Assembly: GCA_002633005.1 (NCBI GenBank)
Contig: NMRA01000071.1
Span: 92,976-156,975 of the forward strand
Origin: Phoronis australis
Taxonomy: Eukaryota > Animalia > Phoronida
Direction: 5' to 3'
DNA length: 64,000 bases
The number at the start of each line of letters is the position of its first letter. The first letter of the stretch is position 1. The position numbers and the translations under genes were made by a program. Positions 1,223 to 46,173 of the stretch are shown here, piece after piece. The notes beneath the pieces were generated by a model. That model saw nothing but the letters and a program-made list of their open reading frames with translations. It was not told the DNA's origin and did no database searches.

Positions 1223-1277
1223 CTGCATCACCCGTTTATAGACAGCATGGCAAGTCACACGGTGGCACAATGGTATA
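1223..1277 (-). CDS. unc-13: candidate unc-13 alternative exon 3b: IPLCHRVTCHAVYKRVMQ (55 nt)
   Basis: tttgttttgatcag acceptor, CAG|gttagt donor; same length and phase (2-0) as 1361-1415, open frame, VxKR aligned position for position. Confidence 0.65.
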
Positions 1278-1360
1278 CTGATCAAAACAAAGGTTTAGAA
1301 CATAAACAAGTGTACAGCTGATTGCACATCCTACTAAGCCAACACCCACGATAGTCATAC

Positions 1361-1415
1361 CTTTAGCAGTCTCTTAAGCACTGTCTTTTCGCACTGCTGA
1401 GAGAACATAGCCAAA
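1361..1415 (-). CDS. unc-13: unc-13 exon 3a, MUN: LAMFSQQCEKTVLKRLLK (55 nt)
   Basis: tttttag acceptor, AAG|gtatga donor; conserved CEKTVLKR. Confidence 0.93.
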
Positions 1416-2242
1416 CTAAAAAGCAAAGGGTTAGATCAAGCACAGTAATGGTTAAATATCCACACCCCACGTTTAGTAATTACTGCTCAGGATACAAAAT
1501 AGCTGCCAAATAACCTTATTGATTTAAAACACAAGATTGCTTACACTATCCTAGCCCACAACTGAGTAGAGTCGACACTATGGCCAAAGAAGCAGAACTA
1601 AAACCCTGATTAATTTGAAAAGTGGAAGAGAATGAGATGTACAAGGAAGACTACAGTGGCAGAAGGGTAGATCTACCATGTGGTGCAGGTAAAGCAGATG
1701 GTAACATCTTCTATGTGGTGCAAGTAATAAAAGTAACAGGGTATCATCTACCATGTAGTGCAGGTAAAGCTGCAGTAGTGTATAACACATACCATATGGT
1801 GCAAGTAACATAAACTACCCTAAAAGTAACTTGACTTAATTTCATTTTTTTCAAACATACACCGATAAACACACTGATGTCATATACTGAATTATCATTT
1901 TGGCAATTTCCAAGCTGGGGTTCATCTAGCAGACGTCCATGATGCCAGGTGAACCCAGCCAGGATGCTCTGTTCAGCATTTAGATGCACAAGTAAAGCAA
2001 TCAAAAAACCATTGGTATCTCTTAATTTGCTTAAAAGTATAAGGTAATCTTTTTTTCAAATGAGACTTTCTTAATATTTAGTCTCAAAGTAGACAGAATG
2101 GTTATGCACCTACTATTTTATGCACTTTCGAACATAAAAATAATATGACACAAATGTTTACTTTGCCCTAAACATGTTTACAATTTGCGTTACTTTTTAT
2201 TTGCTCAACTAGTAATTTCTTTAATCAGCAGTTCACTTGTCA

Positions 2243-2918
2243 TGTGGAATACTACACAAAGTCAGTGTGTGAAGTTCTGCACTGCAGAATATTACACAAA
2301 TTTTGCGGAAATATTACACAAATTTTGCAAAAATTATGCAAAAAGCGTGTGGGATATTTAGCAGGATATTAAATTGGCCCATTAGCAGCTTGACGATTGA
2401 CAAAAACAAGTGGCATAGATGAGATGTCAGGTGTGTCTGTGTCTGTTTAAGGAACAGTTCACAAACCAATGAGCAAGTCTTCCATAGATTAATTACTGTT
2501 TGTATTGAAACATGGATACTTTCATTTGTTGAGAATGGAATTTATTTCATCTTTATTGCAGACTCAGCAAAACTATTCTGTCTTAAGAACTGTCTTAGGA
2601 ACTATGTTAGGATCTTGTCTTAGGAACTGTCTTAGGAACTGTTTCGCAAGACAAAAGTGGAACCATACCGCAACTGTCACATTGATTAATTGTTTGTTTT
2701 GAAATTTTAGAGCAGCAAAGAAATGCTTCGATATAACAAGCCTGTTTGTAATAAATACAAAATTGACAAAACTTGTTTCCATCAATCAACAAGCTGCTAT
2801 TGGTCCAATTTAATATCCTGCTGAAAATCCCGCAGGCTTTTAGTGTAGTGTCTACAAAATTCATGAAATATTCTGCCTTCTGGAACTTCACACACTGACT
2901 GTGCAATATTCTGCATGG
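2243..2918. mobile_element. degenerate MITE-like element
   Basis: inverted pair agtcagtgtgtgaagttc (~2260) / gaacttcacacactgact (~2883), plus gcagaatatt/aatattctgc; ends and TSD not resolved. Confidence 0.4.
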
Positions 2919-3658
2919 GAAAAATGAAATACAAATTAAGGAAAAAAATTGAGCAAATAAAGTAACACTGCAATCATGTTAATTAATGCAAGTTATAGAT
3001 TTGTTTCGTATCATTTTTTATGGCCTTAAGCGGATAAAAACGAGGTGCAGACTAAATAAGAGAGCCTCATTTGAAAAAAGATCGCCTTACCTGTGGGAGC
3101 TCATTAGTCTGCCCAGAATAAAAAGTTGGTTGAGATATGATGTAAGACAGCCACATTGTGAAAGCAAGTTGGGATCATCGAAAATGCAGCCACGTGTTAT
3201 TGGTCATGGACATGCAGAGAAATAACATGTTATTGGACAAGGACGTCCAGTGAAATAACGTGTTATAGGACAAGGACGTCCTGTGAAATTGGAAAACCCA
3301 TTTTGGACACAGTATTTTTGAAATCCTTTTGGTGCATGACTTGATATGTGAACTTTACACAGTTAAAATAACCAACACCTCCAAGTCAAAAGTTGCAAAC
3401 TTACAAATTCTTGAAATCAATCAAATGTCTAATTCAAGGGGAAGTTAAATTTTGAGCAATGCAGATTGGACATATGGTGCAGTTACAACAGAAGGTTATG
3501 GCAAACACTTTTCAATTCAAATACAACATGGCAGTGCTGGAATTTAATTTTGACACACTGCCACCAACAAAAAATTGCACATTTTAACAATAATGTGATC
3601 AGCCTTTCAAACACTTTGAACATCTTGCAATTAAATTGCATGAAAATGAAGAGAAATT

Positions 3659-3783
3659 ACCATGGTATCTATCATACTGGTACTCTTAGACCATGGTATC
3701 TATCATACTGGTACACTTAGACCATGGTATCTATCATACTGGTACACTTAGACCATGGTATCTATCATACTGGTACACTTAGA
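3659..3783. repeat. 31-bp minisatellite, ~4 copies
   Basis: accatggtatctatcatactggtacacttag repeated. Confidence 0.9.
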
Positions 3784-4717: not shown

Positions 4718-4882
4718 CTGCCATCTAACAAATCCATGAGAGGAGATAACACAACATCTGCACTTGAAAGGATTTCAGCCTTTTGACTGGGTTGGTTCAG
4801 TGACACCTGGCCTTGTCCTTTCACTTTTGTGAACAATAGGTCAGCTAACTCATTGACACTTTGTTGTATTTGAGGTTCAAGA
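4718..4882 (-). CDS. unc-13: unc-13 exon, MUN: LEPQIQQSVNELADLLFTKVKGQGQ...ADVVLSPLMDLLDG(S), 165 nt
   Basis: gtttcag acceptor, AG|gttggt donor; VKG and PLMDLLD motifs. Confidence 0.93.
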
Positions 4883-5982: not shown

Positions 5983-7010
5983 TCAGTGGACTGGATGGGT
6001 TACCAGTGGACTGAATGGGTTACCAGTGGACTGAATGGGTTACCAGTGGACTGAATGGGTTACCAGTGGACTGAATGGGTTACCAGTGGACTGAATGGGT
6101 TACCAGTGGACTGAATGGGTTACCAGTGGACTGAATGGGTTANNNNNNNNNNNNNNNNNNNNNNNNNNNNNNNNNNNNNNNNNNNNNNNNNNNNNNNNNN
6201 NNNNNNNNNNNNNNNNNNNNNNNNNNNNNNNNNNNNNNNNNNNNNNNNNNNNNNNNNNNNNNNNNNNNNNNNNNNNNNNNNNNNNNNNNNNNNNNNNNNN
6301 NNNNNNNNNNNNNNNNNNNNNNNNNNNNNNNNNNNNNNNNNNNNNNNNNNNNNNNNNNNNNNNCCAGTGGACTGAATGGGTTACCAGTGGACTGAATGGG
6401 TTATTAGTGGTGTAGGATGTCAAATGCGTTTTGAGTTCAGAGTTAACGATAGATGGCGCGGCAAGTCAGTGCTTTGTATAGTTTTCAGGTTCGCCGCTTG
6501 TAACGCTGCCTGTCACTTCCTGTTTTTTGCTGAATTTATGAAAGTCGTGTTTTTTCTTGCTCCTTGTAAGTTGTTATTTTCAACGTCATTCCATTCGATG
6601 TTATAGCTTGTCGTTTGCTTCATAGTTGCTCAGTATATTAGAGTTATTTTCCATTCCTTTTCGAGGCTTTGTGTGCTTGCACATTGGCGGTTCGCTCCAC
6701 TGAACTTGACCACGCGGTCATTTGACATTGGTTTGACCTCTAGTTCATTTTGAGTTTGCAATTAGAAACCAGTTGTTTCGTCTATTAGTTTTGGTGCTAT
6801 TATTCACTGTGATACTTGTTGATTTGTTTTCTTAATTATTTATTTGTTTATTTCGCTAACATTTGTTTTTTAATTTTCTTTTAGGAAACCTTATGTACTT
6901 CTTGTACGACCGTATGCCAGACCGTATGGCCTCACGATGTTGAATAAATGAAATGTTTTGAATCCTACAAGTGGACTGAATGGGTTACCAGTGGACTGAA
7001 TGGGTTATCA
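5983..7010. repeat. 20-bp satellite with assembly gap (N 6143-6363), interrupted by a solo LTR
   Basis: (ccagtggactgaatgggtta)n on both sides of the gap and of the insertion. Confidence 0.95.
6411..6969. mobile_element. solo LTR, 559 bp
   Basis: TGTAGGAT...ATCCTACA termini, 5-bp TSD AGTGG (6406-6410 and 6970-6974), AATAAA near the right end. Confidence 0.8.
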
Positions 7011-20177: not shown

Positions 20178-20608
20178 CATTCTAACATACCACATCATAC
20201 AGTGTTACGTTCATTCTAACATACTACATCATACAGTGCTACGTCCATTCTAACATACCACATCATACAGTGTTACGTTCATTCTAACATACTACATCAT
20301 ACAGTGCTACGTTCATTCTAACATACCACATCATACAGTGCTATGTTCATTCCAACATATCACACTATACAGTGTTACGTTCATTCTAACATATCATAGT
20401 GTTACCTTCACTCTAATATACCATATCACTCAGAGTTACCTTCATAATAACATATCAAATCATACAATGTTACCTTCATTCTAACACAGGATATTGTACT
20501 TGTTACCTTCATTATAACGTGGCACATTGCAAGGGTGTAACCTTCATTCTTATGAAACCTATTGTATAGAATTGCCTTCAATCCAGAATGTTAATGGAAA
20601 TTGGTTAC
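20178..20608. repeat. 34-bp minisatellite apparently derived from the adjacent exon donor junction
   Basis: cattctaacataccacatcatacagtgttacgtt; exon-proximal copies read gttaccttcatt, like the true junction ggttaccttcattctaaa. Confidence 0.85.
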
Positions 20609-28205: not shown

Positions 28206-28784
28206 ATATAACAAAATATTATCTCCATTTCGGCTAAAGCCTATAAACCAAGGGATGCGCATTAATAATTGGTGCATGATCAGGACAAGCTGGACTACAA
28301 AGCATAATACTTACAATGAATAGACACGGGTGTAGGGACAAACATTTGGCAAAGTACTTACAATGAATAGACATGGGTGTAGGGATAAACATTTGTCAAA
28401 GTACTTACAATAGCTAGGCTAGGCGTAGCAAGAATTATCATGTAGCACGACTACATGCTCAGTGCACCAATTTAGTGCCTTTGTTTGAGTAGCTTGTGTA
28501 AACGTTTATTGTACATGGTAGGCTGTCATAATCACTTAAACTCCACAAAGATGAGTACAGTAGTATAGACCAGACATGCATGTGTACGTACCTCGTGTAA
28601 ACACGTATATTGCACATGGTAGAGTGCCGTAATCACTTGATCTTAAAGTCCACAAAAAGACATGCATGTGTACGTACCTCGTGTAAACACGTATATTGCA
28701 CATGGTAGGGTGCCATAATCACTTGATCTTAAACTCCATGAAGATGAGTACAGTAGTATAGACCAGACATACATGTGTACGTAC

Positions 28785-28900
28785 CTCGTGTAAACACGTA
28801 TATTGCACATGGTAGGGTGCCACTTTCTCTTCACCCTTAATCTCCACACTAATGTGTAATCGAATAGCACCAGATACAGCAGACTTGTCAGTTCTTTTTT
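28785..28900 (-). CDS. unc-13: unc-13 exon: (E)[38 protein letters not shown], 116 nt
   Basis: ttttgtag acceptor, GAG|gtacgt donor; near-identical to the Munc13 consensus. Confidence 0.96.
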
Positions 28901-30427
28901 CTACAAAAAGACAAACCACCATCACTCCATTTTATATTCAAATTGTTTCACTTATAATACATAGAGTCCCTCAACTTAAACAAATGAGTTTGGCTCATGT
29001 AAAATTTTAATACTACTTGGAAATAAAAGAGCCAGAACCTTTATGTACAACATAATTTATGTCAAGTGGACAAAACCAAGGTCACGACAAGTAAGAATCA
29101 TAGCTGAGATTATTGGTGTTTTAGCTGATGAAGTACACAGTTAAGCAATGAAATATTATTTTAAAAAACAACAGACAAAAAGATACATAGGACACAAGAC
29201 CCATTTATCAAAGAAAAATTAACATATTATCACAATGTTCAATCATACACATGACAATATAATACACAACAATACAATATAATACAATGTAACACAATAC
29301 AATATAATACAATGTAACACAATAATACAATACAATCAGATACAATTCCTACATCTTAGATTCAATTCTGCTAAGTGACTAGTTTTCAATATTTACACAG
29401 CTGAGAAAAAAACATAGTCCTGAGCCAATTTAGACACGGGCAACTGATGAATGAATTTAACAACTTATCAAAGCATATTAAACATTAAAAAACAGGGTAA
29501 AAACTTGGGTGGGTTAATAAACATAAGTCTTGAGGCTGTGAATGCATTAACAGTATTTGAAAGAAACACACTACAAATGTTTTGTGTCACAACAATGAAA
29601 CTGATAGGGACACTGCAGGGTCACACAAGCCACCAACAAGGTTGCTATTTGAAATACAGGTTCATAACCATCAACATAATAAATAGACGGAACATGGTAA
29701 AATGAGCAGTGAGAAATAAAGGTCACTTTAGGTTAAAGCCCTCATCAACATAATATATACATATATATAGCCTCATTAACATAACATATCAAACATGGTC
29801 TATATAAACAGTAAGCAACAAGGTCACTAAACTCTCATCAATTTGGGACAATATGGCAGACATGAGAATTTTTATTTTCTCGTGTTTTTCATAAATGACA
29901 CGTAGCATCAAATTGGTGCTTGAAGTTAGTTACTGTCAGTAGCTCCCAACAAAAATATGAAAATGTGAGGAAATCCAGAGCAATGCCTTGAAAAATGAAC
30001 AAGATCACATAAGGTCAGTGACCTGCGCCCACAATGCATCACAAAAGATGTTTCTGAGGGTAACTAGAAGGTGCTATAATAGTAGTTGAATCCTCTCGAA
30101 AATCACATAATGCCAGAGCATTGTCTTCATGTATCCCATAATGCCTAATAAGGGCATTGTCTTCATATATCTCTGAGTCAAGTTTTATTCAGCTCATTCA
30201 CTTCACAAGATATTCACAAAATTAATGCTATTCCACCAAACAATACCTGAAAAGCTCCTTACAAAGAACAAAATAGTGCTGCCACATGGTCATCATACAC
30301 CAAATGATATGTAAAGTTTGGTTAAAATCCGTCAACCGATTCCATAGATACCATCCATGAACACTCTTCATCTAACAAAACTTGACAAGCTCATTATCAT
30401 GTTGATGCAGTGGCAAATCCAGCCTAA

Positions 30428-30630
30428 AAGCGATGGGCGTGGCAGATTGTCATCGCATGGCTGTGTCAAGCGATGGGCGTGGCAGATTGTCATCGCATGG
30501 CTGTGTCAAGCGATGGGCGTGGCAGATTGTCATCACATGGCTGTGTCAAGCGATGGGCCTGGCAGATTGTCATCACATGGCTGTGTCAAGCGATGGGCGT
30601 AGCAGATTGTCATCACATGGCTGTGTCAAG
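30428..30630. repeat. 40-bp minisatellite, 5 copies
   Basis: cgatgggcgtggcagattgtcatcgcatggctgtgtcaag. Confidence 0.92.
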
Positions 30631-31744
30631 TTTTGTTGACATTTGGAATTACTCTTCTACCAAACAACACATGAAAACCAAAGGAGGTGAGCACTACATA
30701 CCAGTAAATCCACCCAAAATATTGATGGTGATGGCGCATTGTCATCACATTCCTGTTTTATTTGTTTAATTTCAATAAAATGTGACAATCGGTTCTCCAG
30801 ATATCATCCGGAAATGATCTTTCCCAAAATTGCCACCAGGAGGTGCTTCAATAGTCAAATCCAACTGAAAATTAAATAATACCAGCGCACGGACATCATA
30901 TACGTCTGTGTCAAGTTAACCGAAATCCATCAGTCCGTTCCCTTGATATCATCTGGAAACACTCAAACAACACTTGAAAACCACCTGCAGAGAACAAAAC
31001 CCCAAGGAGCTGCAATGGTCAAATCAATGCGAAAATTTAAAAGTGTTGGCGCATTCACATTATACACCTGTTCCTCTAGTTTTACTGAAGTCCGTCAATC
31101 GGTTCTCTAGACATCATCCAAAAGCTCTTCCCCAAAATCGCCACTATGAGGTACTCCACGGTTAAATCCACCAAAAATTCAAATTGTGCTGGCATTATCA
31201 CCATATGCCACTGAGTAAGGCTTCATTGATATCCAATAATCGGTTATCTAGACATCATCTGGAAACATTCTTCCCCCCAACCAATACTTGCAAAAACCCT
31301 TCTCAAGAAAAAAGGCCACTAGTTGCAGTAGCAGTTGAATCAGCCGAGCAGAGCATTGATATCTCATACCTATACGTCAAGTTTCTTTAAATTCGTCAAT
31401 AGGATCTCTAGATCTCAAACAGAAATGCTTTACCCCACACTTTGCACCAGGAGGTGCTACAGTAGTATGATTGAAAATAAAATGGTGTCGGCGGATTGAT
31501 ATCATATATCTCAGCATCAACTTTCAACAAAATCCATCTACTGGTTCTTTAGCTATCATCCAGACACCCTCTTCCCCAAACAACACTAGATAAGCCAATT
31601 TCCAAAACAAAAAAGAGCCACTAGAAGGTGATACAATGATCAAATCCACCCAAAAATTAGAAGGTGCTACCGCACTGTCATTACAAACCTGTGTGTCAAC
31701 TTTTATTGAAATCCTTCACTGGGTTCTTTACATATCACCGAGAG

Positions 31745-31920
31745 GAGGCAGTGTGGCCTAGAGTGATAGGTGTCAGTTTTCTTTACATGAGGTCATGGGT
31801 TTAGAGTCCCACCAGGTTACACTGCTAAACCCGTGAGTCAAATTTCTAGCTCCTCAGCTTGGTTTTTACTAAATATTGATGAAGCATAAAAATGGTTCCA
31901 GGTGATCAGTGCAAAAGGTC
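31745..31920 (+). mobile_element. possible tRNA-derived SINE remnant
   Basis: A-box-like tggcctagagtga and B-box-like gggtttagagtccc at tRNA-like spacing. Confidence 0.4.
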
Positions 31921-33213
31921 CACATGCATGGCCAGCGCATGTCTGGTAAATGTTTATCAGACCGCCTGCAATTATTTTATTACATATCACTTGGAAACAC
32001 TGTCACACAAAATGGCCACTAGGATGCACTGCAAATGTCGAATACTGTCAGTTGAAAATCGAAAGATGCCAGTGCATCATTATCTCTGTGTCAAGCTCTT
32101 GTTGATAAAAAAATAGCCACTAGGTGGTACTGCAGTGGTCAAATCAGCCCGAAAACTTAATGGTGTCAGTGCATTAATATCAAACACCTTTGAGTCAAGT
32201 TTCACTGAAATCCTGCTGTTCACCAGGGGTCAGGGCAGACTGAGAAAAAAGGTGTGAACCATTCTAGACTAGTGATGCATTACACCCTTGTGCCAAATTT
32301 TATCAAAATTCGACCAGGGGTTTTTGAGATATCAAGCGGACATCCAGACAATCTGACACAAAGATGACAATATGCGACCACATTGTGGGCGCACAAAAAT
32401 ATGCAATTTTGTTGATTATTTTTGTCCAAAATTGATAAGGTTTTATGGTAGGCACTAACATCATGTTAGGTTCATATACTATACCAAACAGTAACTGACC
32501 TAAATGAGGAATGATTAGCGACAATTATGGAGAGATGACAAATAACAAAAACTCAACAACAACTACATTGTCTGGTAATCAACTAAACACAATAATTCAT
32601 GCTTCGCTGAAAATGCTAACAAAAGCAGAAACCTTAAGGTAGTTGTCAACCTTCATGAAGTACTCAGTTCAGGTCTTTTTAGAATAACTTTTTAAATTCC
32701 ATATTCAACCCACAACAGTTTATGCTGTCTTTCTGAATTCTAAATGACAGATTCAAGCCTTACAACAATCTAAAATAATCATTTTTCTTATTGAGACTAT
32801 GTACAATACAGAATTCCAGTTAAGTAATGAAAATATGAAGTGAACGCCCCCTTTTGGAACCAGAGAACTGAACTCACACACTTGATTCACCACCGGGTAT
32901 GACCTTTGTTGTTGTAGAATAAAACAAAAAAAACAGTACTGTAGATTCCCTAATCTAGGGGGAAAGCTCGTAACAGATCTGCAGGTAGCTCAAGTCCCGG
33001 ATCTCTGTTAAGACTAGGTCTGTGGACTTGGATCTCAGTTGCTTCTCGTACCCTGCACTTCCACTTCTCTGGGTGTATACTCAGTATATTGAAGTCCTCA
33101 ACAGAGATCAAGTGAAATGGACAGCAGTAATCAGCCTAAGGTTTGGGTTAGTGTGATCGCTAACCCTGGTTGATAACTGATGATCCATCTCACTGATATA
33201 CTTGTCAGTACAC

Positions 33214-33390
33214 TCACAGCACACTTGTATTCATTGGTAGATCACAGCACACTTGTATTCATTGGTAGATCACAGCACACTTGTATTCATTGGTAGATCA
33301 CAGCACACTTGTATTCATTGGTAGATCACAGCACACTTGTATTCATTGGTAGATCACAGCACACTTGTATTCATTGGTAGATCACAGCAC
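33214..33390. repeat. 29-bp minisatellite, 6 copies
   Basis: tcacagcacacttgtattcattggtaga. Confidence 0.92.
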
Positions 33391-34159
33391 GCTTCTCGAG
33401 GGCGGTGACATATCTTTCACTGATGGGAGGATGGACTGAATAGTGCTAAACAGTCCACCCTCTAATCAAGTGGTAAATCAAGTGCCTGAGATACGGACAA
33501 AATGGCTGTAGACATATCAAGGTACAGTGTTTTGGTTCCAAAAGGAATCTTCACTTAATATTTCCATTTTTATTACTTTGGTTATGAGTGTTATTTTATG
33601 CCCTGCATGTAAACTGCTAAAACATTAACATAGATTGGGAGATATACCTGTGATTCATGGGAATTGACTCATGTAGTACAAAGAATTTGATGTTTACGGT
33701 TATGTTGGGCACTATAAAAATGGCCAAATTTGGCGACCAACATATCTCTGACTGGATTCATATGAAACTTTTGAATACGATTTATGCAATATTCCCACAA
33801 ATACTGTTAGGAAATATTGTTTAAACAATGAGGAGCTACCAAAAACAGAAATTTTAGAAAACTGCAACAGCATTTTTGATGTCTCACCTAGAACATACAT
33901 ATTGAGAAAAATTGATCTGTGATGTGATTGATACCATTGATTCGCTATTAATGCATCTTAAGTTTGGTTTTGCAAAATTTTACTAAAAAGACATGATCAC
34001 ATGACCCAATCAGTTTGATTAAAAGTCAAAAATCAATTTCCGCAGATTTCCGCAGCATTTCTACTTTCAAAAAATATAAATTGATACCGAGTTAAAATAT
34101 ATACTTTTCTATATATTTTGTTGAATGCATACTAGTTGATAAGGTCTTACATAACCTCA

Positions 34160-35720
34160 TAACCTGAGCAAAGTGGAGCGTTGAAATGTGCCCACGAATG
34201 CTGGAGTAAACGGTGTGCTTCTAGGGGTGTTTATTTGTATCTTAAAAATGGCCACTGGATGGCGCGAAATACATTGAATGTATCCAAAAACTGGTATGTC
34301 ATCTAACCTATTTACCAAATCTGTCAAAGAACTTCTGAGAAATCAAGGAAAATGGAAAAAATGAAATTGCCACTTTTGAGTAAAGACTATGGTTGCAAAA
34401 CAAAACAAAACTGGCGCCACAGAAGATGAAGTTGTCAGAAAATCATCATCAACCGTCCTCTTCACACCAAGAACACATATGCCAATTTTCACAATCATCG
34501 TTAGAGTGGTTTTGTTGATAGAGAGGAGAATGCCAAGAATACAACTAGAAAATAGTAAAAATGGCCACTAGATGGCGCAAAATACGACGAATCCATCCTA
34601 AAATAGGAAATGTCATCATTTCAATAGGAAGCTATTTATCAAATTGCATAAAAATCCATCAAGCTTCAGAGAAACAGAGGAAAACCGAAAAAAAATTAAA
34701 TTGCCACTAGGGTGGGGCGCACAGTGTTAGACAGATCTGTCTGAAAGTCGTCGTTGTTCGTTGTAAACTTCATACAAATAGAATTGCTTAATTAATAAAG
34801 ATCCTGCACAGGCTTTAGGACATACAGCCATGCGCATAAAAAACAAAACTGCCACTATGAGGCACCACAGTAGACGAGGTTATCGGAAAATCATCGTCAG
34901 CCCTCCTCTTCACATTAGGAACATACACGCCAATTTCCACAATCGTGAAAATTGGTTTGGTTGACAGAGGACATGCCAAAAAATAGAGTCCATTTGGTAA
35001 AAATGGCCATTAGGTGGGTCAAAACCCCTCAAATGAAACTGAAAACCAGAGGACACCATAATCTTACTAATAGATGCCTATCTTTCAAATTTTATGAAAA
35101 TCCGTTGAGGACATTTGAAGATACAGAGGTAAACGTTAAAAATTTAAATTGCGACTAGGGAGCATACCAGCAGTCCGATTTGTCTGAAAGTCGTCGTCGT
35201 CCGTTCTCAACTTCATATAAATACAGTAGCAAAATTTAATAAGATCCTGTAGACTGTTAAGAAGATAGAGCCATGGGCGCAAAAACAAACAAAACTGCCA
35301 CTAGGAGGCGCCACAGGAGTCAAAGCCATTGGAAAATCATCCTAAGCTGCCCTCTTCTCCGAAAGAACATAACATATTATATGCCAATTTCATAATCATC
35401 CTTAGAGCTGTTTGGTTGGTAGAAGGGCAGCCGACAAAAAAGCAGAATCAAAATGTCCATCAGGTGGCGCAAAGTAACTTGAATCCATCCAAAAACGTGA
35501 TAATCGCGTCATCTCACTAATAAATGCCTAATTGCCAAATTTTATGAAAATCCCATAAGGATCTCCGAAGATACAGAGGTAAACATAAAAAAATAAAACT
35601 GACACAAGGGGGCACACCGGTAGTGGGAGAAATCCGAAATTCGCAGTCATCCATCGTCAGCCTCATAGCAAAACATCTGCCAAATCTCATCTAGATCCTG
35701 TGAGGGGTTTAGGAGATGCA
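34160..35720 (+). mobile_element. Helentron/HINE-like repeat copy with tandem internal modules
   Basis: homologous to 9893-10895 and 26907-28205. Confidence 0.6.
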
Positions 35721-36654
35721 GCTGGCTAATAAAGGCTTCACACATAATTCAAAATTACTTGAAGTCTCCTCTAACAACTGGAAAATTGGTTGGTCTGGAA
35801 CGACTGGCATATTAAGTCTCATGACTGCTGTAAAACTAAAATTATGAAGCCTGAATAAACCTTGTCAACTAAATTATTGTATAATATAAGCACTATTATT
35901 CATTATTAGGATAATTTTATTCTAAGTTACAGGCAGACCTTATAAAATCTTGGTAACAATAAGGCCTACCTGTGCCTACCTTACAACCTACATTGTCAAC
36001 CATGAGCAGCAACACTGACAAATGTTTATTTACATCACAATAGAATTTTGCTCGGTAACAAGAATTTCTCAATTAAAGAGTCAGCCTGAATTGTATTACT
36101 CACCAGTAATCTCATTTTAGCCAGAACAGGAATGATTACCAAAAGAGAAGAAGGCTTTTCAAACTTGGAATTCAATGTTAGAAAAGGTGGCTGACCCAAA
36201 AAGGTTTTTCAGTGTTTATACAAGCCTCTGTAGTGTGCCTTAGTTGATGTTTTTCAAGAACACAGAGCAGTGGCCAGTAAGGACAAAAGGGAGACAATTC
36301 CTAACAGAGCATTGGCCAGTAAAAAGGGAGACAATTCCTAACAGTGGCCAGTATGGAAGGAAGCTTTGAGAAAGAATAACAATGGTGATGTAGCAATAAA
36401 TCTGACCAAACTTAGTCAAATTTATCGAAATGCTGAATTTAAAGCCATGGTGTGGGTATCAATGAAAACATTTTATACAATACATGAGAACTGCTTTTTT
36501 CTATAAAACTTCCAGGAAGGTTGACAATTACCTGCACACTTAATTACACAAAACGAAAAAATGTCCAAAACAAACAGAAGGTGCTAAAAGAGAGCTTGAG
36601 GCAACAATTGGTTACTCTATGTTACAGTAGACAGACCTGGACTACTAAACTGAC

Positions 36655-36785
36655 CTAGATTGTACCAGACATCCATCTCCCCAGACAAAGTACGGACCTC
36701 AATCGTTGTTTGACCCAGGAAGTCATCCGATTCCCTTGATGTGAACCTTGACCTTAGTCGCGACCTGAGGTCATCGTCTTCATCC
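36655..36785 (-). CDS. unc-13: unc-13 alternative exon 2b, C2B loop 3: [43 protein letters not shown] (131 nt)
   Basis: tttcatctag acceptor, TAG|gtcagt donor; phase 2-1; one codon longer than 2a; many synonymous differences in the shared 3' half. Confidence 0.92.
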
Positions 36786-36833
36786 CTAGATGAAACCATT
36801 TTAATCTCAAAGCACATTATTGATAATACCCAC

Positions 36834-36961
36834 CTAGGTTATACCAGACGTCCATCTCACCACTCAGCGTGCGCACCTCAATAATCGTCTGACCAAGGAA
36901 ATCATCCGATTCTGGGGTGAACTTTTTACGCAAAAATGACTTAATGTCATTATCTTCATCC
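36834..36961 (-). CDS. unc-13: unc-13 alternative exon 2a, C2B loop 3: [42 protein letters not shown] (128 nt)
   Basis: tatgtag acceptor, TAG|gtgggt donor; phase 2-1. Confidence 0.92.
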
Positions 36962-38407
36962 CTACATACAACCAAATATAACCAAAGGTTTAATGGTGCA
37001 ACATAAAGCAATCACCATAATCTACCTTGCCACTAGTCAGTAGACTCATCCAGTCCATTTTGGGCTTGGAGGGGCTAACTAGTCATTGCTGCTGATGGTT
37101 GTAAATCATGGACTTGATGCAACAGCAAAAAGTATTTTGAAACTGACATGCAAGGTCAGTGAAAGTAGTTCTTTGTGAACTCTGCTCTTAGTCATACAAC
37201 CGTCCCAGTTGGACAGTGTAACTAAATACAGATTAACAAAGAGTTTATGGTGTTGGCTAAGACGATTGTTGTTTTATTGCCCCTATGGGTTTTGAATAGC
37301 TGAGCCCACCCGAAATGGACTCCATATTGTCTGCTATTCAATTTTAACAGTGGTCACAAGGTGTCATGTGGTCAACAAAAAACAGCAGCCCCTCACAACA
37401 ACAAGAACAAAAATGAAAACTTAATAATAATAAAAATTGAAAACAAAAGAATTGAAAAGGAAGTTAATTGTTCTTGACAATCTGTTAATTCACAAAATTC
37501 ACAGTTCAATACTGTATAATTACGTCATGTGTTCGAGTGGTTATAAACCTGCCTTGCAATAATAAAACATTGATTTATACCTGACTCATGTTATGAAATT
37601 GGTCAAAAGAATTTCTTTCGCCAAATTGGATGAGATTCAGGGCTTGCAACAGTTTGCTAAATGCAGGTTTACAAAACAGTTGAGTAGTCACTGCATTATG
37701 CAACAAACATACTCTTACATTATAGTGATCTATCAGTTCTTTGCAACAAATATAGCCTAATATAATAGTGATCTATCAGTTATTTGCAAGTGGATAAGGA
37801 ACAAGTAGAGACCAACTTAATGATAACCACAAGTGCACTAACTCATAAGTTCACTCGATGGACGATATGTGAGAGTGTTGCCGCTTTAAAACAATTTCAG
37901 TCACTGCCATCGTGTTTCTATCAGACTGAAATGTCCAAAATCAGACGGAACAGACGGAAGTCTCACAATTTTTGGGGGAATAGACTTTATGAATTCTGAA
38001 GTCATCACCAATTTTGAAACGAATTTCGGGGGAATTATTTCTGACTTGGATACTCCCTGTGGTGACTTCGTGGTGACTTGGGATCTTTCCCTGGTTACCA
38101 GACACAATCTGAAGTTGCCTTGATGAGTTGCAGCTCATCAAATGGAGCACAGAAGAATGAAAATGTTTAATGTCTATCATACAAGTGCTTGCTTTAAAGA
38201 AAAACTTGAAAATGTTGTGTATCAAGTTTTAGTTAAAATGTTGTCTCTCAACGTTCAACTTCAAAGCAGATTAAAGCAAACAAAAGAGAAACCAAAGAAC
38301 GGACAGAAACTGCTTTAAATAAAAGAACAGAAAAACATCAAGAACTTGAAATTGATCCGAGTGATACTTGTACTCAAATGTGAAACACTTGCAAACATCT
38401 CCATACA

Positions 38408-38525
38408 GAAACAGTCAGTCCTACTCTTGGATTGACAAACAGTCAGTCCTACTCTTGGATTGACAAACAGTCAGTCCTAATCTTGGATTGACAAATAGTC
38501 AGTCCTAATCTTGGATTGACAAACG
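38408..38525. repeat. 28-bp minisatellite, 4 copies
   Basis: aaacagtcagtcctactcttggattgac. Confidence 0.9.
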
Positions 38526-38809
38526 ATTCTCAAGATTTCCCACAACATTCAATCCCACAATCCCTCACAAACAACCCATTAAGCACATACTAATCTCCCA
38601 TCTTAACACTGAACATAATTATGTAATTTACCAGCTTGTTTCAAATTGTGCTCTTTTAAAAAAGCACAATGCTGTGGAGCATGATAAATTTCCCCCACCT
38701 GACAGCGTCAATTCCACAAACATTGAAGATCCACCCAAACAGTGGAGGAGCCTAGGTTCTTTGAGCTGAAGTCAGCACAACAAAACCTGGTGAGATTCTT
38801 TCCCCTCGC

Positions 38810-39357
38810 AATTCATTAGTCTCATCTATTCATTAGTCTCATCAATTCATTAGTCTTATCTATTCATTAGTCTTATCTATTCATTAGTCTCATCCATTCA
38901 TTAGTCTCATCTATTCATTAGTCTTATCTATTCATTAGTCTTATCTATTCATTAGTCTTATCTATTCATTAGTCTCATCCATTCATTAGTCTCATCCATT
39001 CATTAGTCTTATCTATTCATTAGTCTTATCTATTCATTAGTCTCATCCATTCATTAGTCTCATCTATTCATTAGTCTTATCTATTCATTAGTCTCATCCA
39101 TTCATTAGTCTCATCCATTCATTAGTCTTATCTATTCATTAGTCTCATCCATTCATTAGTCTCATCAATTCATTAGTCTTATCTATTCATTAGTCTCATC
39201 CATTCATTAGTCTCATCTATTCATTAGTCTTATCTATTCATTAGTCTCATCAATTCATTAGTCTTATCTATTCATTAGTCTTATCTATTCATTAGTCTCA
39301 TCCATTTATTAGTCTCATCCATTCATTAGTCTTATCCATTCATTAGTCTCATCAATT
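38810..39357. repeat. 17-bp minisatellite, ~32 copies
   Basis: attcattagtct(c/t)atc(t/c). Confidence 0.95.
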
Positions 39358-39754
39358 CCAAAGCTGTTGATATCCCACAATGCTAAGCCACGTTAGTACA
39401 TTTTTATTAATCGGCCATTCATTGACTAATCATGAACGGGGACACCAATATGCATATGCACCGGTGCTTAAGATACATCTGATTGGTTGTACCACGTGCT
39501 CTAGACTACTTCTGTCATTAATCAAATTTATCTGCCCAAACTTCACCCCGACAAATTCAAAGGTAACTTTCAACTAATTTTTAGAAAAATACCGAGGCAT
39601 ACTCAAAATTTGTAATACTTCTACGACAGGACATAACGACTTTTAGAGCCCTAAAAGTACAAAGAATATGTCAGGTTAATTGGAGACTGTTGGCAACTTT
39701 CTAATTGTATTATCAAACTAAAGTTGTTTTGAAATGACGGATATCAGCACTTAC

Positions 39755-39796
39755 CACACCCTCACTTTAATTCGGTCGGAAGAATTATGGCACTCA
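39755..39796 (-). CDS. unc-13: unc-13 exon, C2B: ECHNSSDRIKVRV(W), 42 nt
   Basis: tttttag acceptor, TG|gtaagt donor; matches the Munc13 consensus. Confidence 0.95.
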
Positions 39797-39804
39797 CTAA
39801 AAAT

Positions 39805-40190
39805 AAAGAAAATAGAATGAGCAGTTGTATCTGTGTCAGATGGTTAGACAGTGACAGGGACTAGACAGACAAATAGAATAGTTATAATATCTGTTAGATG
39901 GTTACAGTGATAGGAAAAGACAAATAGAATAGTTATAATATCTGTTAGATGGTTACAGTGACAGGAAAAGACAAATAGAATAGTTATAATATCTGTTAGA
40001 TGGTTACAGTGACATGAAAAGACAAATAGAATAGTTATAATATCTGTTAGATGGTTACAGTGACAGGAAAAGACAAATAGAATAGTTATAATATCTGTTA
40101 GATGGTTACAGTGACAGGAAAAGACAAATAGAATAGTTATAATATCTGTTAGATGGTTACAGTGACAGGAAAAGACAAATAGAATGAACA
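39805..40190. repeat. 51-bp minisatellite immediately upstream of the 42-nt exon acceptor
   Basis: gacaaatagaatagttataatatctgttagatggttacagtgacaggaaaa, ~7 copies. Confidence 0.92.
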
Positions 40191-40431
40191 GTTACCTTTT
40201 GTTTACTGAAGCTGGGAAAGTTGACACTCGCATCAACAATGCTATCACATTGGAAGACATAAGAAAACTTGAAATGACATTACCTGACACATGTGGCCAG
40301 TAGGAGTATTGCAATTATATGTTTAAAGTGACATTACCATACACATCTAGAATGTATCACTGAAAATAAGGGTTCAGGTCATGCGACACTGAATTAATCT
40401 AGCAAATGGCCTCATGACAATCAATACTTAC

Positions 40432-40573
40432 AAGTAGAATGTTTCATCCCACACTGGGTTCAGGTCCTGTGGCACTGTCTTGGTCTGTTTCTTTGTCTTG
40501 CCCACCTGTACTGTCACATAGGGGTCACTAGTGCCAGTCTTGTCTTTTCCAATAAGACCCTGAGCACATATAA
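40432..40573 (-). CDS. unc-13: unc-13 exon, C2B: (V)[46 protein letters not shown](F), 142 nt
   Basis: gttgtag acceptor, TT|gtaagt donor; C2 SDPYV and LNPVW motifs. Confidence 0.96.
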
Positions 40574-40929
40574 CTACAACGGAACCAAACATATAGTTAG
40601 AAACACATGGTAAAACACCATGATTATATATCCACTCATGAAAGGTAAGCCCTACTTCAACTTAATAAAGTATGAAGCACGGCAAGATCATTGCCCACGT
40701 TTATCCTAAGGTATGTTTTGTGGAGATGCAAGAAGTCAGTGAAGAGATCACAGACTGGGGCCTACCGCAAATATGAACGGGAGTTAGAGATCTACATGGT
40801 TGACTGAAAACAAGCAAAAGAACATAAGAAGTATGTCATTGAGAAATATATTTTGAATATTTATCACAACAGTCTGAGAAAAGACAAGTTGTGAATAAGT
40901 CAAACGATAACACCAAAATTAGCTATGAA

Positions 40930-42278
40930 CCTGTTTCTTTTTATTCAACAGTGTTCCACATTGCATCCTCAATGGCCTCTGTTCTTTATTCAGCACAATA
41001 TTCTACACTACACCCTCTGTGACCACCAACATGACAGACTACACCTGTTCTTTATTCAGCACAGTATTCTACACTACACTCTGTGACCTCCAGCATGACT
41101 GACTACACCTGTTCTTTATTCAGCACAATATTCTACACTACACCCTCTGTGACCTCCAACATGACAGACTACACATGTTCATTATTCAGCACAATATTCT
41201 TCACTACTCCCTCTGTGACCTCCAACATGACAGACTACACCTGTTCTTTATTCAGCACAGTATTCTACACTACACCCTTTGTGACCTCCAACATGACTGA
41301 TTACACCTGTTCTTTATTCAGCACAGTATTCTACACTACACCCTCTGTGACCTCCAACATGACTGATTACACCTGGGGCCCGTTCCAAGAAACTGACTTA
41401 AGTTCATTATTGACTTAAGTCTAAGATTTGTCTTAACTTCCAAACTTTGAAACTTCCATATCTGGTAAATTTATCAAAATTAAGCCAAAACGTACGTCAA
41501 ACACTTAAATCAAGCTTAATATCTCTTTCTTGAAATGATTTTGAGACAAATTGAACTTTTATTTTAAAATTTAGTAAAATTTAGGAATTGTCTTAGCTAA
41601 GTCAGTTTTGTTGGAACGGGCCCCTGTTCTTTATTCAGCACAATATTCTACACTACACCCTCTGTGACCTCCAGCATGACTGACTAGAACCTGTTCTTTA
41701 TTCAACACAGTATTCTACACTACACCCTCTGTGACCTCCAACATGACTGACTACACCTGCTCTTTATTCAACACAGTATTCCACATTACACCCTCTGTGA
41801 CCTCCGACATGACTGACTACACCTGTACTTTATTCAACACAGTATTCCACGCTAAACCCTCAATGACCTCCAACATGACCGACTACACCTGTTCTTTATT
41901 CAGCACAGTATTCTTCACTACACCCTCTGTGACCTCCAACATGACTGATTACACCTGTTCATTACTCAGCACAATATTCTTCACTACACCCTCTGTGACC
42001 TCCAACATGACTGATTACACCTGTTCTTTATTCAGAACAATATTCTACACTAAACCCTGTGACCTCCAAAATGACTGACTACACCTGTTCTTTATTCAAC
42101 ACAGTATTCCACACTAAACCCTCAATGACATCCAACATGACTGACTACACCTGTACTTTATTGAACACAGTATTCCACACTAAACCCTCAATGACATCCA
42201 ACATGACTGACTACACCTGTACTTTATTAAACACAGTATTCCACACTAAACCCTCTGTGACCTCCAACATGTCTACAC
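40930..42278. repeat. 66-bp minisatellite, interrupted by a Harbinger MITE
   Basis: ctgttctttattcagcacaatattctacactacaccctctgtgacctccaacatgacagactacac. Confidence 0.93.
41376..41623. mobile_element. PIF/Harbinger MITE, 248 bp
   Basis: CTG|GGGCCCGTTCCAAGAAACTGACTTA...TAAGTCAGTTTTGTTGGAACGGGCCC|CTG; neighbouring repeat units show the empty site. Confidence 0.88.
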
Positions 42279-42279
42279 C

Positions 42280-42590
42280 TGAGATTCCTCTACATGTTAC
42301 CATACTTCAGATAGCCATTGGTGAGATCTATGTAAATATTACCAAATGCCAGATAGTCATTGATGAGATAAATCTAAATGTTACCATACTTCAGATAGCC
42401 ATTTCTGAGATACATTTACATTGAATACCATACTTCGAATGGATATCATTGATTAGATCTGTTTACATAATAACAAACTTCAAATAGCCATTGATGAGAT
42501 CTATCTAAATGCTACCATACTTCAGATAGCCATTGATGAATAGATATTACCATCCTTTAGACATCCATTGACAAGAACTATCTACATAAA
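42280..42590. repeat. degenerate ~45-bp minisatellite
   Basis: accatacttcagatagccattgatgagatctat variants. Confidence 0.75.
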
Positions 42591-42762
42591 AGTTCACAAA
42601 GATATACAACTGTGCAGCTACGGTTGTCTGAATTTTGGAGCTTAAAACCAGATACAAGCTGTGTATTGATTTCACTTTGATCAAATGAAAAATCCAACCT
42701 TGGGCAACTATAAAAACGAACAATAAAAAAACTTCAAAATAAAACTGTTACAATAGACTTGG

Positions 42763-42838
42763 AGAAATTTCATTTTATCAAGTAACAATGATGACAGTAT
42801 TTTCTGTCATCATTGCTACTTGATAAAATGAAATTTCT
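42763..42838. repeat. near-perfect inverted repeat, 35-bp arms with 6-nt loop
   Basis: agaaatttcattttatcaagtaacaatgatgacag-tatttt-ctgtcatcattgctacttgataaaatgaaatttct. Confidence 0.92.
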
Positions 42839-43019
42839 AAGTCAAGAATGGCTGTCTAGTGAAGTTGAGAATAGTGGATTGGGGTGAGCTCATCAGTCTG
42901 ACCCTCAAGCAAGAATCAAATAAAACATATTTGGAGGCTGGCAATAAGATCCCACTGAAACCTTGACTGTAACTTAGACTGGTCAAAGGTAAATCAGTTC
43001 TACATCTTTTGGGGGCGAA

Positions 43020-43190
43020 AATTGCCACACGACAGGCATTCATTGCCACACGACAGGCATTCATTGCCAGATGACAGGCATTCATTGCCAAATGACAGGC
43101 ATTCATTGCCACACGACAGGCATTCATTGCCAGATGACAGGCATTCATTGCCACACGACAGGCATTCATTGCCAAATGACAGGCATTCTT
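43020..43190. repeat. 21-bp minisatellite, 8 copies
   Basis: attgccacacgacaggcattc. Confidence 0.92.
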
Positions 43191-43394
43191 AGACACTTTC
43201 AAGAATATCACACCGTGTCAGTAATTGGGGTTCAGCATAAAGGTAAGTGCAAGTAGTTAAAAGGAAAAAGCAAATTTGGGAGATGAACATTATGAAGTAG
43301 GCTAATAGATATGCAAAAGATATCAAGTTAGTGTTAAACTGATAGGTAGCACATCATAAAGGAAAAGCTAGAACAAAATTGGGTTTGCGGCCAA

Positions 43395-43990
43395 TAGACT
43401 ACCCTTGGTGACACTAGCGACACATTATAAAACTGTTACAAGAAGACTACCCCTGGTGAGACTAGTCACATTATAAACTGTTACAAGAAGACTACCCCTG
43501 GTAACACCAGTCACATCATAAACTGTTACAAGAAGACTACCCCTGGTGACACTAGTCACATTATAAACTGTTACAAGAACACTACCCCTGGTGACACTAG
43601 TCGCATTATAAAACTGTTACAAGAAGACTACCCCTGGTAACACCAGTCACATTATAAACTGTTACAAGAAGACTACCCCTGGTGACACTAGTCACATTAT
43701 AAAACTGTCACAAGAACACTACCCCTGGTGACACTAGTCACATTATAAAACTGTTACAAGAACACTACCCCTGGTGACACTAGTCACATTATAAACTGTT
43801 ACAAGAACACTACCCCTGGTGACACTAGTCACATTATAAAACTGTCACAAGAACACTACCCCTGGTGACACTAGTCACATTATAAAACTGTTACAAGAAC
43901 ACTAACCCTGGTGACACTAGTCGCATTATAAAACTGTTGCAAGAAGACTACCCCTGGTGACACTAGTCGCACATTATAAAACTGTTACAC
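43395..43990. repeat. 46-47-bp minisatellite, ~13 copies
   Basis: actacccctggtgacactagtcacattataaaactgttacaagaag. Confidence 0.93.
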
Positions 43991-44559
43991 AATGTAAAGC
44001 TAACACAACTATCTTACCCTCTTGAGTGTAAATTTTGGAGCATTTTATCAAAATTTATTATTTGGTTCAAAAAGTTTAATATCTGCGACCGGCTGTAAAC
44101 GCAGCTTGCGTAGGGAACAGCAGATTAGCAGTTTTGAGGTGCAAGTTGAACCATGGCAACAATAGCTTTTGTACAAGCAGTAGTTGACATTTAAAACAGG
44201 TATGTGCACAACACAGACTAAATGTGACAAAGGCAATGATCTAATCCCAACATTCAGCCTCAACATTTGGAACTTAACTATTAATTTAAATGATTCAACA
44301 ACAAAATTCGTTAACTTTACTGTGGCAGATGGTCAATTGTTTAGTTGAGTTCCAAGTAAAGAGATTAGACCACTGAGTCCAAATTTTAATGACAGTGGCT
44401 GTGAGCGATACATTTTCAAAAGCACAGTGACAATATCAACAACACAACAACATTGACAAGAACCATGAAAGTAAAAACCATAAACTAGATATCTGAAACT
44501 GCAAAATAAAACTTAAACACAAATGTGCAACATAACAGTGACTGCTGCAACCTGCACGA

Positions 44560-45200
44560 TGATGAGCGTTGGTCAGTATTGGTGACTGGAGAGACATGGA
44601 CATGCAGGATAGTGAATGTTGGTCAGTATTGGTGACTAGAGAGACATGGACATGCAGGATAGTGAATGTTGGTCAGTATTGGTGACTAGAGACATGGACA
44701 TGCAGGATAGTGAATGTTGGTCAGTATTGGTGAGTAGAGACATGGACATGCAGGATAGTGAATGTTGGTCAGTATTGGTGACTAGAGACATGGACATGCA
44801 GGATAGTGAATGTTGGTCAGTATTGGTGACTAGAAACATGGACATGCAGGATAGTGAATGTTGGTCAGTATTGGTGAGTAGAGACAGGGGGCTATACAAT
44901 GGTGAGTGTTGTTCAGTATTGGTGACTAGAGAGACAAGGGGCAATAGATACAATGGCGAATGTTGGTCAATACTGGTGACTAAGAGACAGAAGCCTGTGT
45001 ATAATGGAGAGTGTTATTCAGTATTGGTGACTAGATAGGCAGGGACCTGTATAATGGTGAGCGTTGGTAAGCAATGGTCAATAGAGGCAGGGCCTGTATA
45101 ATGGTGAGTGTTATTCAGTATTGGTGATTAGAGGCAGGGGGGCTGTACAATCTTATGGTGAATGATGGTCAGTATTGGTGACTAGACAGACAGAATGGTG
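44560..45200. repeat. ~51-bp minisatellite with a degeneration gradient
   Basis: gttggtcagtattggtgactagagacatggacatgcaggatagtgaat. Confidence 0.9.
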
Positions 45201-45910
45201 CCTGCATAGTGAGTCTTGGCTAGTGGTCAGAAAATGTATGACTGAAAAGAGACAAGGACAATAATGCAGACCACAGAAATGGAGAGTAATGATGACCAGA
45301 CCAGATATATGAACAGTGCGTGCTGGTAACCAGAGACAATGACAGTACTGGTGAATAGTGATAAGGACAGTACCAATGACCAGACCAGACATATGAACAG
45401 TACTGTTGACCCCATGTATGGTCAGTACTGTTTAACCAGGATATGGTCAGTACTGGTGACCACTTGTATGGACAGAACTGGTGACCACAGATACGGACAA
45501 CTCTAGTGCCCAGTGAGACAAGGTAAGTACTGGAGACAGGAGTACAGGTCACTACAACACTAATGGAGAACAACAGCAACTTATGTATATAGTCTGTCTT
45601 CTGCAAAATTGATTAATTCTAGTTAGTAATACTGTACCTCAACCATGGCGCTGCAAAATGTTTGAAGTCGAACATGCGAGAACACAAACAACGTGAATGA
45701 GAGGAAGGGTTCATAAGAGGTTCAATGTAAAAGGCGTTAGTAATACAACATGGAAACTAAGTTTAACATGTCTTTGGTCTTGTTAATAAATGTTAACTGA
45801 AAGTACAAAATATAAAAAAATGAGTTTCAACTACACAACAGTCATCATTCTCTATACTTAGGCTGACCGCCACCAGAGGGCGAGCATGCTCCAACACCAG
45901 GTGTCACTAC

Positions 45911-46017
45911 CTGTGATGGCTATTTTTGCCGACCATTTTGATGTGCCATCCAGTATCATCTGCTTGGCTTGCTCCATGTCTGTTTTATGTTGATTGCCAT
46001 CGACATGGAATGTCTCT
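45911..46017 (-). CDS. unc-13: unc-13 alternative exon 1b: ETFHVDGNQHKTDMEQAKQMILDGTSKWSAKIAIT (107 nt)
   Basis: tattgcag acceptor, CAG|gtagtg donor; canonical LDGTSKWSAKI start of C2B. Confidence 0.92.
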
Positions 46018-46066
46018 CTGCAATAGTCATGTGATAGTCATGTGATATGCAAGTGACTCAACTGAC

Positions 46067-46173
46067 CTGTTATCTTAAGTTTGGCAGACCACTTGGATGT
46101 GTTCTCAATAACGGCAGCATGCAGGGTGTTCATTGAAGAAGAATGCACTTTGTTCAGCACATGAAACAACTGC
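46067..46173 (-). CDS. unc-13: unc-13 alternative exon 1a: QLFHVLNKVHSSSMNTLHAAVIENTSKWSAKLKIT (107 nt)
   Basis: ttttgtactgcag acceptor, CAG|gtcagt donor; open frame, same length and phase (2-1) as 45911-46017, shares TSKWSAK. Confidence 0.85.

Follow-up and report, generated by a model that had tools for sequence, protein, structure and literature searches.

Two tandem exon switches and a candidate third in the unc-13 gene of Phoronis australis

A stretch of 64,000 nucleotides (nt) from the phoronid Phoronis australis (contig NMRA01000071.1 of assembly GCA_002633005.1, positions 92,976 to 156,975; hereafter the window) contains most of an unc-13/Munc13 gene on its minus strand, extending from about position 60680 down past 878. 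Within the part that encodes the C1-C2B module, two adjacent pairs of homologous exons, 1a/1b and 2a/2b, are expressed as alternatives between the same neighbouring exons. We assign a probability of roughly 0.8 to the reading that both pairs are used one copy at a time, with exclusion likely enforced by the shortness of the spacer between the copies and backed up by frameshift and predicted nonsense-mediated decay (NMD). A preliminary description of this locus had proposed three such binary switches in the C1-C2B-MUN core, giving up to eight variants. For pairs 1 and 2 this is borne out by RNA, in which both copies are spliced to the same neighbours, while pair 3 is confirmed as a sequence pattern only. 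The verified number is two switches (four variants), not three (eight).

Two expressed exon pairs in the C1-C2B region

Exon borders were placed with a junction solver (18 junctions), the 40432/39796 junction being set from RNA joints. Expression was followed with one small contig set (X1) and with three runs of raw RNA-seq reads that carry the same species label (X2, X3 and X4); reads were placed on 28701-48700 and on 45700-46400, and 15 of 34 joints were listed for the first of these stretches. The exons and spacers around the two pairs, in the order of transcription, are as follows.

49036..49156, minus strand: constitutive C1-C2B linker exon that precedes pair 1, with borders set by the junction solver; reads from the 5' ends of both 1a and 1b enter its last 30 bases
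46067..46173, minus strand: exon 1a, 107 nt, linker end and first C2B strand; AG/GT borders, RNA depth, alignment to 133-166 of rat Munc13-1 chain 5ue8_A
46018..46066, minus strand: pair-1 spacer, 49 nt, from the sequence; read depth zero in bin 46036-46059
45911..46017, minus strand: exon 1b, 107 nt, the alternative copy; RNA joint to 40573, depth, alignment to 5ue8_A 132-166
40432..40573, minus strand: constitutive exon that follows pair 1 and encodes C2B strands; both borders defined by RNA joints, Pfam C2 match of 60 bits
39755..39796, minus strand: constitutive 42-nt exon upstream of pair 2; RNA joint from 39796 to 40432, donor 39755 from the junction solver
36834..36961, minus strand: exon 2a, 128 nt, C2B Ca2+-binding loop 3, helix and last strands; AG/GT borders, RNA joint to 28900
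36786..36833, minus strand: pair-2 spacer, 48 nt, from the sequence
36655..36785, minus strand: exon 2b, 131 nt, one extra codon; RNA joint to 28900, alignments to Munc13-1 C2B
28785..28900, minus strand: constitutive exon downstream of pair 2; acceptor 28900 from RNA joints, donor from the junction solver

The two copies of pair 1 are identical at 14 of 35 residues and 50 of 107 bases. Their alignment scores 77 (self-score 184), and the next best of 10,853 stop-free 35-residue windows on the minus strand scores 9. Reads placed on 45700-46400 number 14, 14 and 6 in X2, X3 and X4, respectively, all with at least 99% identity, and their depth is restricted to 45911-46017 and 46067-46173; it is zero everywhere else in this interval, including bin 46036-46059, which lies entirely within the spacer. 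A GT..AG joint from 45911, the end of 1b, to 40573 is carried by 6, 5 and 0 reads in the three runs, and the following joint from 40432 to 39796, likewise GT..AG, by 6, 4 and 0. The downstream loose ends at 45911 and 46067 share an identical 30-letter continuation that corresponds to window positions 40544-40573, and the upstream loose ends at 46017 and 46173 continue in common into the end of exon 49156-49036. A joint between 1a and 1b was found in none of the 34 reads placed at this pair. Exons 1a and 1b are hence confirmed as duplicated, diverged and expressed alternatives between the same neighbouring exons. Their balance, judged by depth, differs between runs: X2 contains mostly 1b (about 5-8.7 versus 1.8-3), X3 mostly 1a (3.5-5 versus 1.7-3), and X4 shows 1a only (6 reads).

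Exons 2a and 2b are closer to each other, with 34 of 42 aligned residues identical and one extra codon in 2b. The differences comprise the acidic run, which reads DEDND in 2a and DEDDD in 2b, basic and hydrophobic residues of the helix and the additional residue of 2b. Both copies are joined to the same acceptor at 28900 with GT..AG borders, 2a (from 36834) by 4, 7 and 1 reads in X2, X3 and X4, and 2b (from 36655) by 2, 1 and 0 reads as well as one X1 contig; no joint between 2a and 2b occurs among the 15 of 34 joints listed. This pair, too, is confirmed to consist of duplicated, diverged and expressed alternatives. Both pairs thus display the two hallmarks of a mutually exclusive cluster, namely the same flanking exons and no co-occurrence of the copies, at low read numbers and, for pair 2, among the joints listed.

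The geometry is common to both pairs and to the candidate pair 3a/3b in the MUN domain that is treated below. AG...GT borders are found at all six exons, each of which begins one base into a codon; partners share the same phase, and the lengths within pairs are equal or nearly so (107/107, 128/131 and 55/55 nt), as expected of a mutually exclusive exon cluster. Each of the six single-inclusion products, tested in its own context, keeps an open frame. Double inclusion leads in all three pairs to a frameshift and a stop inside the second copy. Skipping both copies shifts the frame as well, with early stops for pairs 1 and 2 and, for pair 3, a frame that stays open over those 72 nt of the following exon that the window contains. 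In these respects the preliminary description was accurate: the positions and geometry of the pairs agree with the sequence coordinates, the spacer lengths of 48, 49 and 83 nt (pairs 2, 1 and 3) are read from the sequence as it had given them, and the computed frames agree with its statement that all double inclusions frameshift.

The classic example of steric hindrance between mutually exclusive exons is provided by exons 2 and 3 of alpha-tropomyosin. At pairs 1 and 2 of phoronid unc-13, the 49- and 48-nt spacers would likely be too short for removal as introns, so that one copy would be used at a time, and frameshift with predicted NMD could serve as a backstop to steric exclusion. Such a combination of steric exclusion and NMD would be the most economical model. 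Elsewhere along the portion of the gene inside the window, the shortest intron predicted among the 18 junctions is 115 nt long, followed by one of 194 nt, and the RNA-confirmed introns range from 635 to 7,933 nt. In PMC5740500, a donor-to-branch-point distance below 50 bp is taken as potential steric interference; since the whole spacers comprise just 49 and 48 nt, this distance is necessarily below 50 nt in both pairs. The 83-nt spacer of pair 3 need not be limiting. The tandem-duplicated mutually exclusive exons with steric hindrance dealt with in PMC5740500 are likewise adjacent and homologous, of equal or near-equal length, in the same phase and not divisible by three. In contrast to these systems, it is spacer length alone that points to a steric step in phoronid unc-13.

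Exclusion at pairs 1 and 2 could instead be brought about mainly by competing RNA structures or tissue-specific splicing factors, and not by the shortness of the spacers. The varying 1a:1b ratio is in line with such a mechanism and suggests some regulated choice on top of any steric block. In addition, an 11-nt stretch in 1b (45985-45995) can pair with the tract before 1a (46184-46194), and a 12-nt stretch at 36603-36614 with 36979-36990, so that pair 2 is flanked by complementary sequences. Yet, around pairs 1 and 2, a search for inverted repeats returned just imperfect stretches of 10-12 nt, and around pair 3 it gave no match. The stretches are matched at 83-92%, a size expected by chance, and the 48- and 49-nt spacers put the donor-to-branch-point distance well under the 50 bp given in PMC5740500. 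We consider it unlikely that structures or factors do the main work. It is extremely improbable that the pairs are assembly artefacts or that the locus is a dead pseudogene. The assembly is admittedly imperfect, with runs of N, a 4.4-kilobase satellite and MUN exons absent between 20606 and 14158, but the divergence between the pair-1 copies shows that they are not duplicated reads from a single exon, spliced RNA contains all four exons of pairs 1 and 2 with no less than 99% identity, and all single-inclusion frames tested are open.

Several points weigh against exclusive use enforced by spacer length. The reads are few, with 34 at pair 1 and 15 across junctions at pair 2, so that rare or NMD-removed double-inclusion products would be missed, and a 2a-2b joint may exist beyond the 15 of 34 joints listed. 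With 151-nt reads, both choices are never phased on one molecule. As tissue and individual of the runs are unspecified, the ratio differences may not reflect cell type. Introns of 45-50 nt are routinely spliced in some animals. Finally, the gene model is incomplete in the MUN domain, and the functional effects considered below would be carried over from work on rat Munc13-1, not from the phoronid protein.

Some further observations concern the surroundings of the two pairs. The loose-end consensus contains a C/T difference on the plus strand at about 49059, in exon 49156-49036, which is read as synonymous. An 85-nt tandem duplication at 49110-49311 copies the acceptor and approximately the first 47 nt of the same exon; the upstream copy has no donor, and its acceptor, if used, would add 85 nt and shift the frame. 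Downstream of pair 2, approximately the last 50 nt of exon 28900-28785 and its donor are repeated twice more in the following intron (28572-28874, periods 86 and 107), which creates additional copies of the donor site. At 34037-35370 and 41374-42040, many RNA reads and contigs accumulate that contain mismatches, back-joints and loose ends; these regions look like a dispersed repeat expressed from elsewhere and not like unc-13 exons.

The same switches in other animals

Both switches are old and common to other protostomes, Drosophila included. The survey of orthologs covered 20 protein clusters expanded into their isoforms and 120 further representatives. The isoforms are mostly automatic RefSeq models, and their combinations are therefore no proof of phasing; the exon pairs are nonetheless present in public annotation across phyla. 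Alternatives at site 1, the position of pair 1, appear as substitution of a whole 35-residue block between isoforms. The numbers of isoforms with either block at sites 1 and 2 are given below.

Site 1, Lingula: 10 versus 3
Site 1, Gigantopelta: 7 versus 1
Site 1, Haliotis cracherodii: 7 versus 1
Site 1, Biomphalaria and other heterobranchs: 8 versus 5
Site 1, Pomacea: 11 versus 2
Site 1, oysters: 17 versus 1
Site 1, Daphnia: 6 versus 5
Site 1, Bombus: 12 versus 3
Site 1, Drosophila serrata: 3 versus 2 of 8 members
Site 1, ticks: several forms
Site 1, scorpion and spiders: several forms
Site 2, Dreissena: 9 versus 5
Site 2, Mercenaria: 5 versus 3
Site 2, Ruditapes: 4 versus 2
Site 2, Mya: 9 versus 3
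Site 2, Mytilus: 12 versus 8
Site 2, oysters: 8 versus 10
Site 2, Lingula: 10 versus 3

No alternatives at site 2 were found in the arthropod or gastropod isoform sets examined. The 13 isoforms of Lingula include all four combinations of the two sites (2, 8, 1 and 2 isoforms), and alternatives at both sites are also found in Magallana and Mytilus. In RefSeq orthologs from Lingula anatina, Magallana gigas, Mytilus, Dreissena, Daphnia magna, Drosophila serrata, Bombus and Rhipicephalus, the protein positions match those of the phoronid pairs, the block lengths are 35/35 and 42/42-43 residues as in the phoronid, and whole blocks are likewise substituted. Even the distinction between DEDND and DEDDD at the start of exon 2 is common to Lingula, Mytilus, oysters and the phoronid. 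Both site-1 blocks are contained within single gene models of Cloeon, Parnassius, Tribolium, Pararge, Strigamia and Elysia, and both copies of site 2 stand in tandem in one gene model of the rotifer Didymodactylos. Such tandem-copy models are probably annotation errors that expose the exon pair in the genomes concerned.

Compared with the common type at site 1, both phoronid copies have diverged further, their best matches reaching 8 (1a) and 11 (1b) identities over the 24 variable residues. Over these residues, 1b scores about equally against the common type (61-63) and the second type of arthropods (56-59), and the corresponding scores of 1a are 38-42 and 9-21; stretches of 24 residues are too short for pairing the copies one to one with those of the orthologs.

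It had been suggested that the phoronid lineage diversifies the priming core by exon choice in place of the routes known from fly and worm. This idea has to be abandoned, because the site-1 switch is present in Drosophila serrata, other arthropods, molluscs and Lingula. The novelty that the preliminary description had made dependent on the pairs not being annotated in many orthologs is lost as well, given their annotation across phyla and the four combinations in Lingula. Full-text searches of the literature and term look-ups in PMC12084633, PMC6025963, PMC3923563 and PMC5740500 did not bring up any account of such exon pairs in unc-13; the gene may still be listed in the supplements to surveys of mutually exclusive exons, which lay outside this scope. 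The finding is a pointer to old switches visible in public isoform models rather than a novelty of this genome. Forms of the 1a/1b and 2a/2b type could be compared in fly or mollusc synapses with regard to Ca2+ and lipid binding, release probability and short-term plasticity.

A candidate third pair in the MUN domain

The third pair proposed in the preliminary description lies near the start of the window, at a site (site 3) that encodes a conserved helix of the MUN domain. The features concerned are listed below.

4718..4882, minus strand: MUN-domain exon upstream of pair 3; tblastn, junction solver, Pfam MUN match of 27.4 bits
1361..1415, minus strand: exon 3a, 55 nt, conserved MUN helix; 84% identity to orthologs, one sequence type throughout the ortholog sets examined
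1278..1360, minus strand: pair-3 spacer, 83 nt, from the sequence
1223..1277, minus strand: candidate exon 3b, 55 nt; AG/GT borders, open frame, length and phase of 3a
878..949, minus strand: MUN-domain exon downstream of pair 3; tblastn, junction solver

Exons 3a and 3b have just 3 of 18 residues in common and, at the nucleotide level, 22 of 55 bases. The peptide score of 10 between them belongs to the top 0.48% of 22,988 random windows; the resemblance is weak yet not random, and homology is marginal. A scan within 400 nt of 16 exons yielded 33 same-length candidates of the AG-n-GT type, 6 of them open, and among the open ones 3b is the only candidate apart from exon 1a with a score above 0, the others ranging from -18 to -41. 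The donor of candidate 3b is strong, and its acceptor side has a motif resembling a branch site with a pyrimidine tract after it. When the acceptor flanks of the gene are compared in 190 pairs, the highest score belongs to those of 3b and 3a (23; mean 13, standard deviation 2.8); 0.1% of 3,000 random AG sites attain this value, as do 0.8% of 485 AG sites rich in pyrimidines. One unrelated acceptor flank, that at 36961, scores 21 against 3b, so that the match may reflect a common branch-site and pyrimidine-tract pattern and not common descent. Among the orthologs, one sequence type occurs at site 3 in every group examined; none has an alternative there or a counterpart of 3b, unlike the phoronid with its candidate 3a/3b. 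A near-length protein search with the upstream exon as query gave 3 matches, the best at 65% identity, and no same-species protein fragments. Immediately upstream of exon 949-878, its acceptor region is duplicated in tandem (950-1020).

From its sequence features, candidate pair 3 is a plausible diverged duplicate, and the odds that 3b is used appear about even. An equal chance may be given to the explanation that 3b is not a working exon at all but a decaying relic of a 3a duplication or a chance pseudo-exon, which would leave two switches only. The low similarity of the copies and the almost equal score of the unrelated flank speak for this, as does the near-invariance of the 3a-type helix in orthologs, for which the 3b peptide, with a proline, two cysteines and two histidines, looks like a disruptive replacement; moreover, small tandem duplications are frequent in the locus, those at 49110-49311, 28572-28874 and 1020-950 clearly not being exons. 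Such an explanation would, however, have to account for equal length, phase, open frame and canonical splice sites all at once, for a peptide similarity with P of about 0.005 per candidate among about six open candidates, and for an acceptor-flank match that few random or pyrimidine-rich AG sites attain. Conversely, 3b might be a real, lineage-specific third switch that replaces a MUN helix of one sequence type among all orthologs examined, the three choices being set together per cell type. We regard this as doubtful; if it were true, the animal would retune both the C1-C2B regulatory module and the SNARE-assembly core of Unc13 via exon choice. The complete original proposal, with three working switches, up to eight variants and a lineage-specific alternative to N-terminal isoforms or paralogs, seems very unlikely. 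It is favoured by the geometry and frame behaviour that hold for all three pairs and by the splice signals and peptide score of 3b, the only positive among the open candidates. Against it stand the annotations of arthropods, molluscs and a brachiopod, which contain pairs 1 and 2 and show that these are not lineage-specific, the single sequence type at site 3 and the result of the same-species protein search.

Protein context and state of the locus

Unc13/Munc13 proteins set vesicle priming and release probability, and their C1-C2B module mediates plasticity that depends on diacylglycerol and on Ca2+ and phosphatidylinositol 4,5-bisphosphate (PIP2). To our knowledge, no such exon pairs are known in vertebrate Munc13-1; vertebrates have Munc13 paralogs instead. 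In the ortholog P0002, with Pfam domains C1 at 467-516, C2B at 591-698 and MUN at 913-1404, the three sites correspond to residues 559-594, 657-698 and 1276-1294. With one gap at most, the window exons can be aligned to the C1-C2B-MUN structure of rat Munc13-1 (PDB 5UE8; C2B 6NYC/6NYT). Exons 1a and 1b here cover the last part of the C1-C2B linker together with the first strand of C2B, and exon 2b aligns to C2B chains 6nyc_A 85-126 and 5ue8_A 229-270.

According to PMC5344669, the C1-C2B linker forms four helices and makes extensive contacts with helix H1, MUN, C1 and C2B. A swap at pair 1, which affects the end of this helical linker and the first C2B strand, would alter the packing of C1-C2B against MUN. 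As regards pair 2, PMC8648301 describes a unique amphipathic helix in a C2B Ca2+-binding loop that inserts into the membrane, and a severe impairment of priming by R769E in that loop. Counting from R750 and K752, which are named in PMC5344669, exon 2 would begin at D757 and include R769. The differences between 2a and 2b are concentrated in the region of the amphipathic-helix loop. A swap of loop 3 and the membrane-inserting helix would tune Ca2+/PIP2-dependent membrane binding and, thereby, release probability and short-term plasticity. These effects of both pairs are inferred by analogy with the rat protein.

The assignment of the locus to unc-13, as put forward in the preliminary description, is upheld by Pfam matches of the window's own exons, which follow each other along the minus strand as C1_1 (49.6 bits), C2 (60 bits) and MUN (77.8, 76.7 and 27.4 bits). 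The order of C1, C2B and MUN that defines the Unc13/Munc13 family is found in these translations. The exon chain was established by tblastn with three unc-13 proteins, since an all-against-all BLAST of open reading frames was swamped by satellites; on the minus strand, it is collinear with the orthologs from about 60680 to 875 and beyond the window start. Over eight constitutive exons, identity amounts to about 75% with mollusc and nemertean unc-13 and to about 60-64% with that of the sea cucumber Apostichopus, the lowest-ranked among the matches listed. These identities point to a spiralian-like animal without a near relative in the protein collection searched. The most upstream of the domain exons treated here is the following.

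49790..50009, minus strand: C1 domain exon; tblastn identity of 89-90% to mollusc and nemertean unc-13, Pfam C1_1 match of 49.6 bits, borders from the junction solver

Exons for about 157 MUN residues (P0002 903-1059, approximately the first 150 Pfam MUN positions) were not found between 20606 and 14158, and the junction solver gave no bridge between these two positions. This interval contains a 27-nt satellite at 15811-20176 (161.7 copies, 99% matches), followed by a single N at 20177 and a 34-nt repeat at 20178-20486. The missing MUN exons probably reflect an assembly gap or collapse. For the window itself, the value of the analysis chiefly lies in a correct annotation, with two switches, a candidate third and an incomplete MUN assembly.

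A run of N at 6143-6363 lies within a 20-nt repeat. The introns are packed with minisatellites, for which Tandem Repeats Finder gives 45 rows with a score of at least 200 and periods of 17-328; examples are 60937-62014 (28 nt, 38.5 copies) and 38811-39358 (17 nt, 32 copies). The units formed by the exon pairs, 156, 176 and 138 nt in size, fall into the same range as several of the minisatellite repeats in the window.

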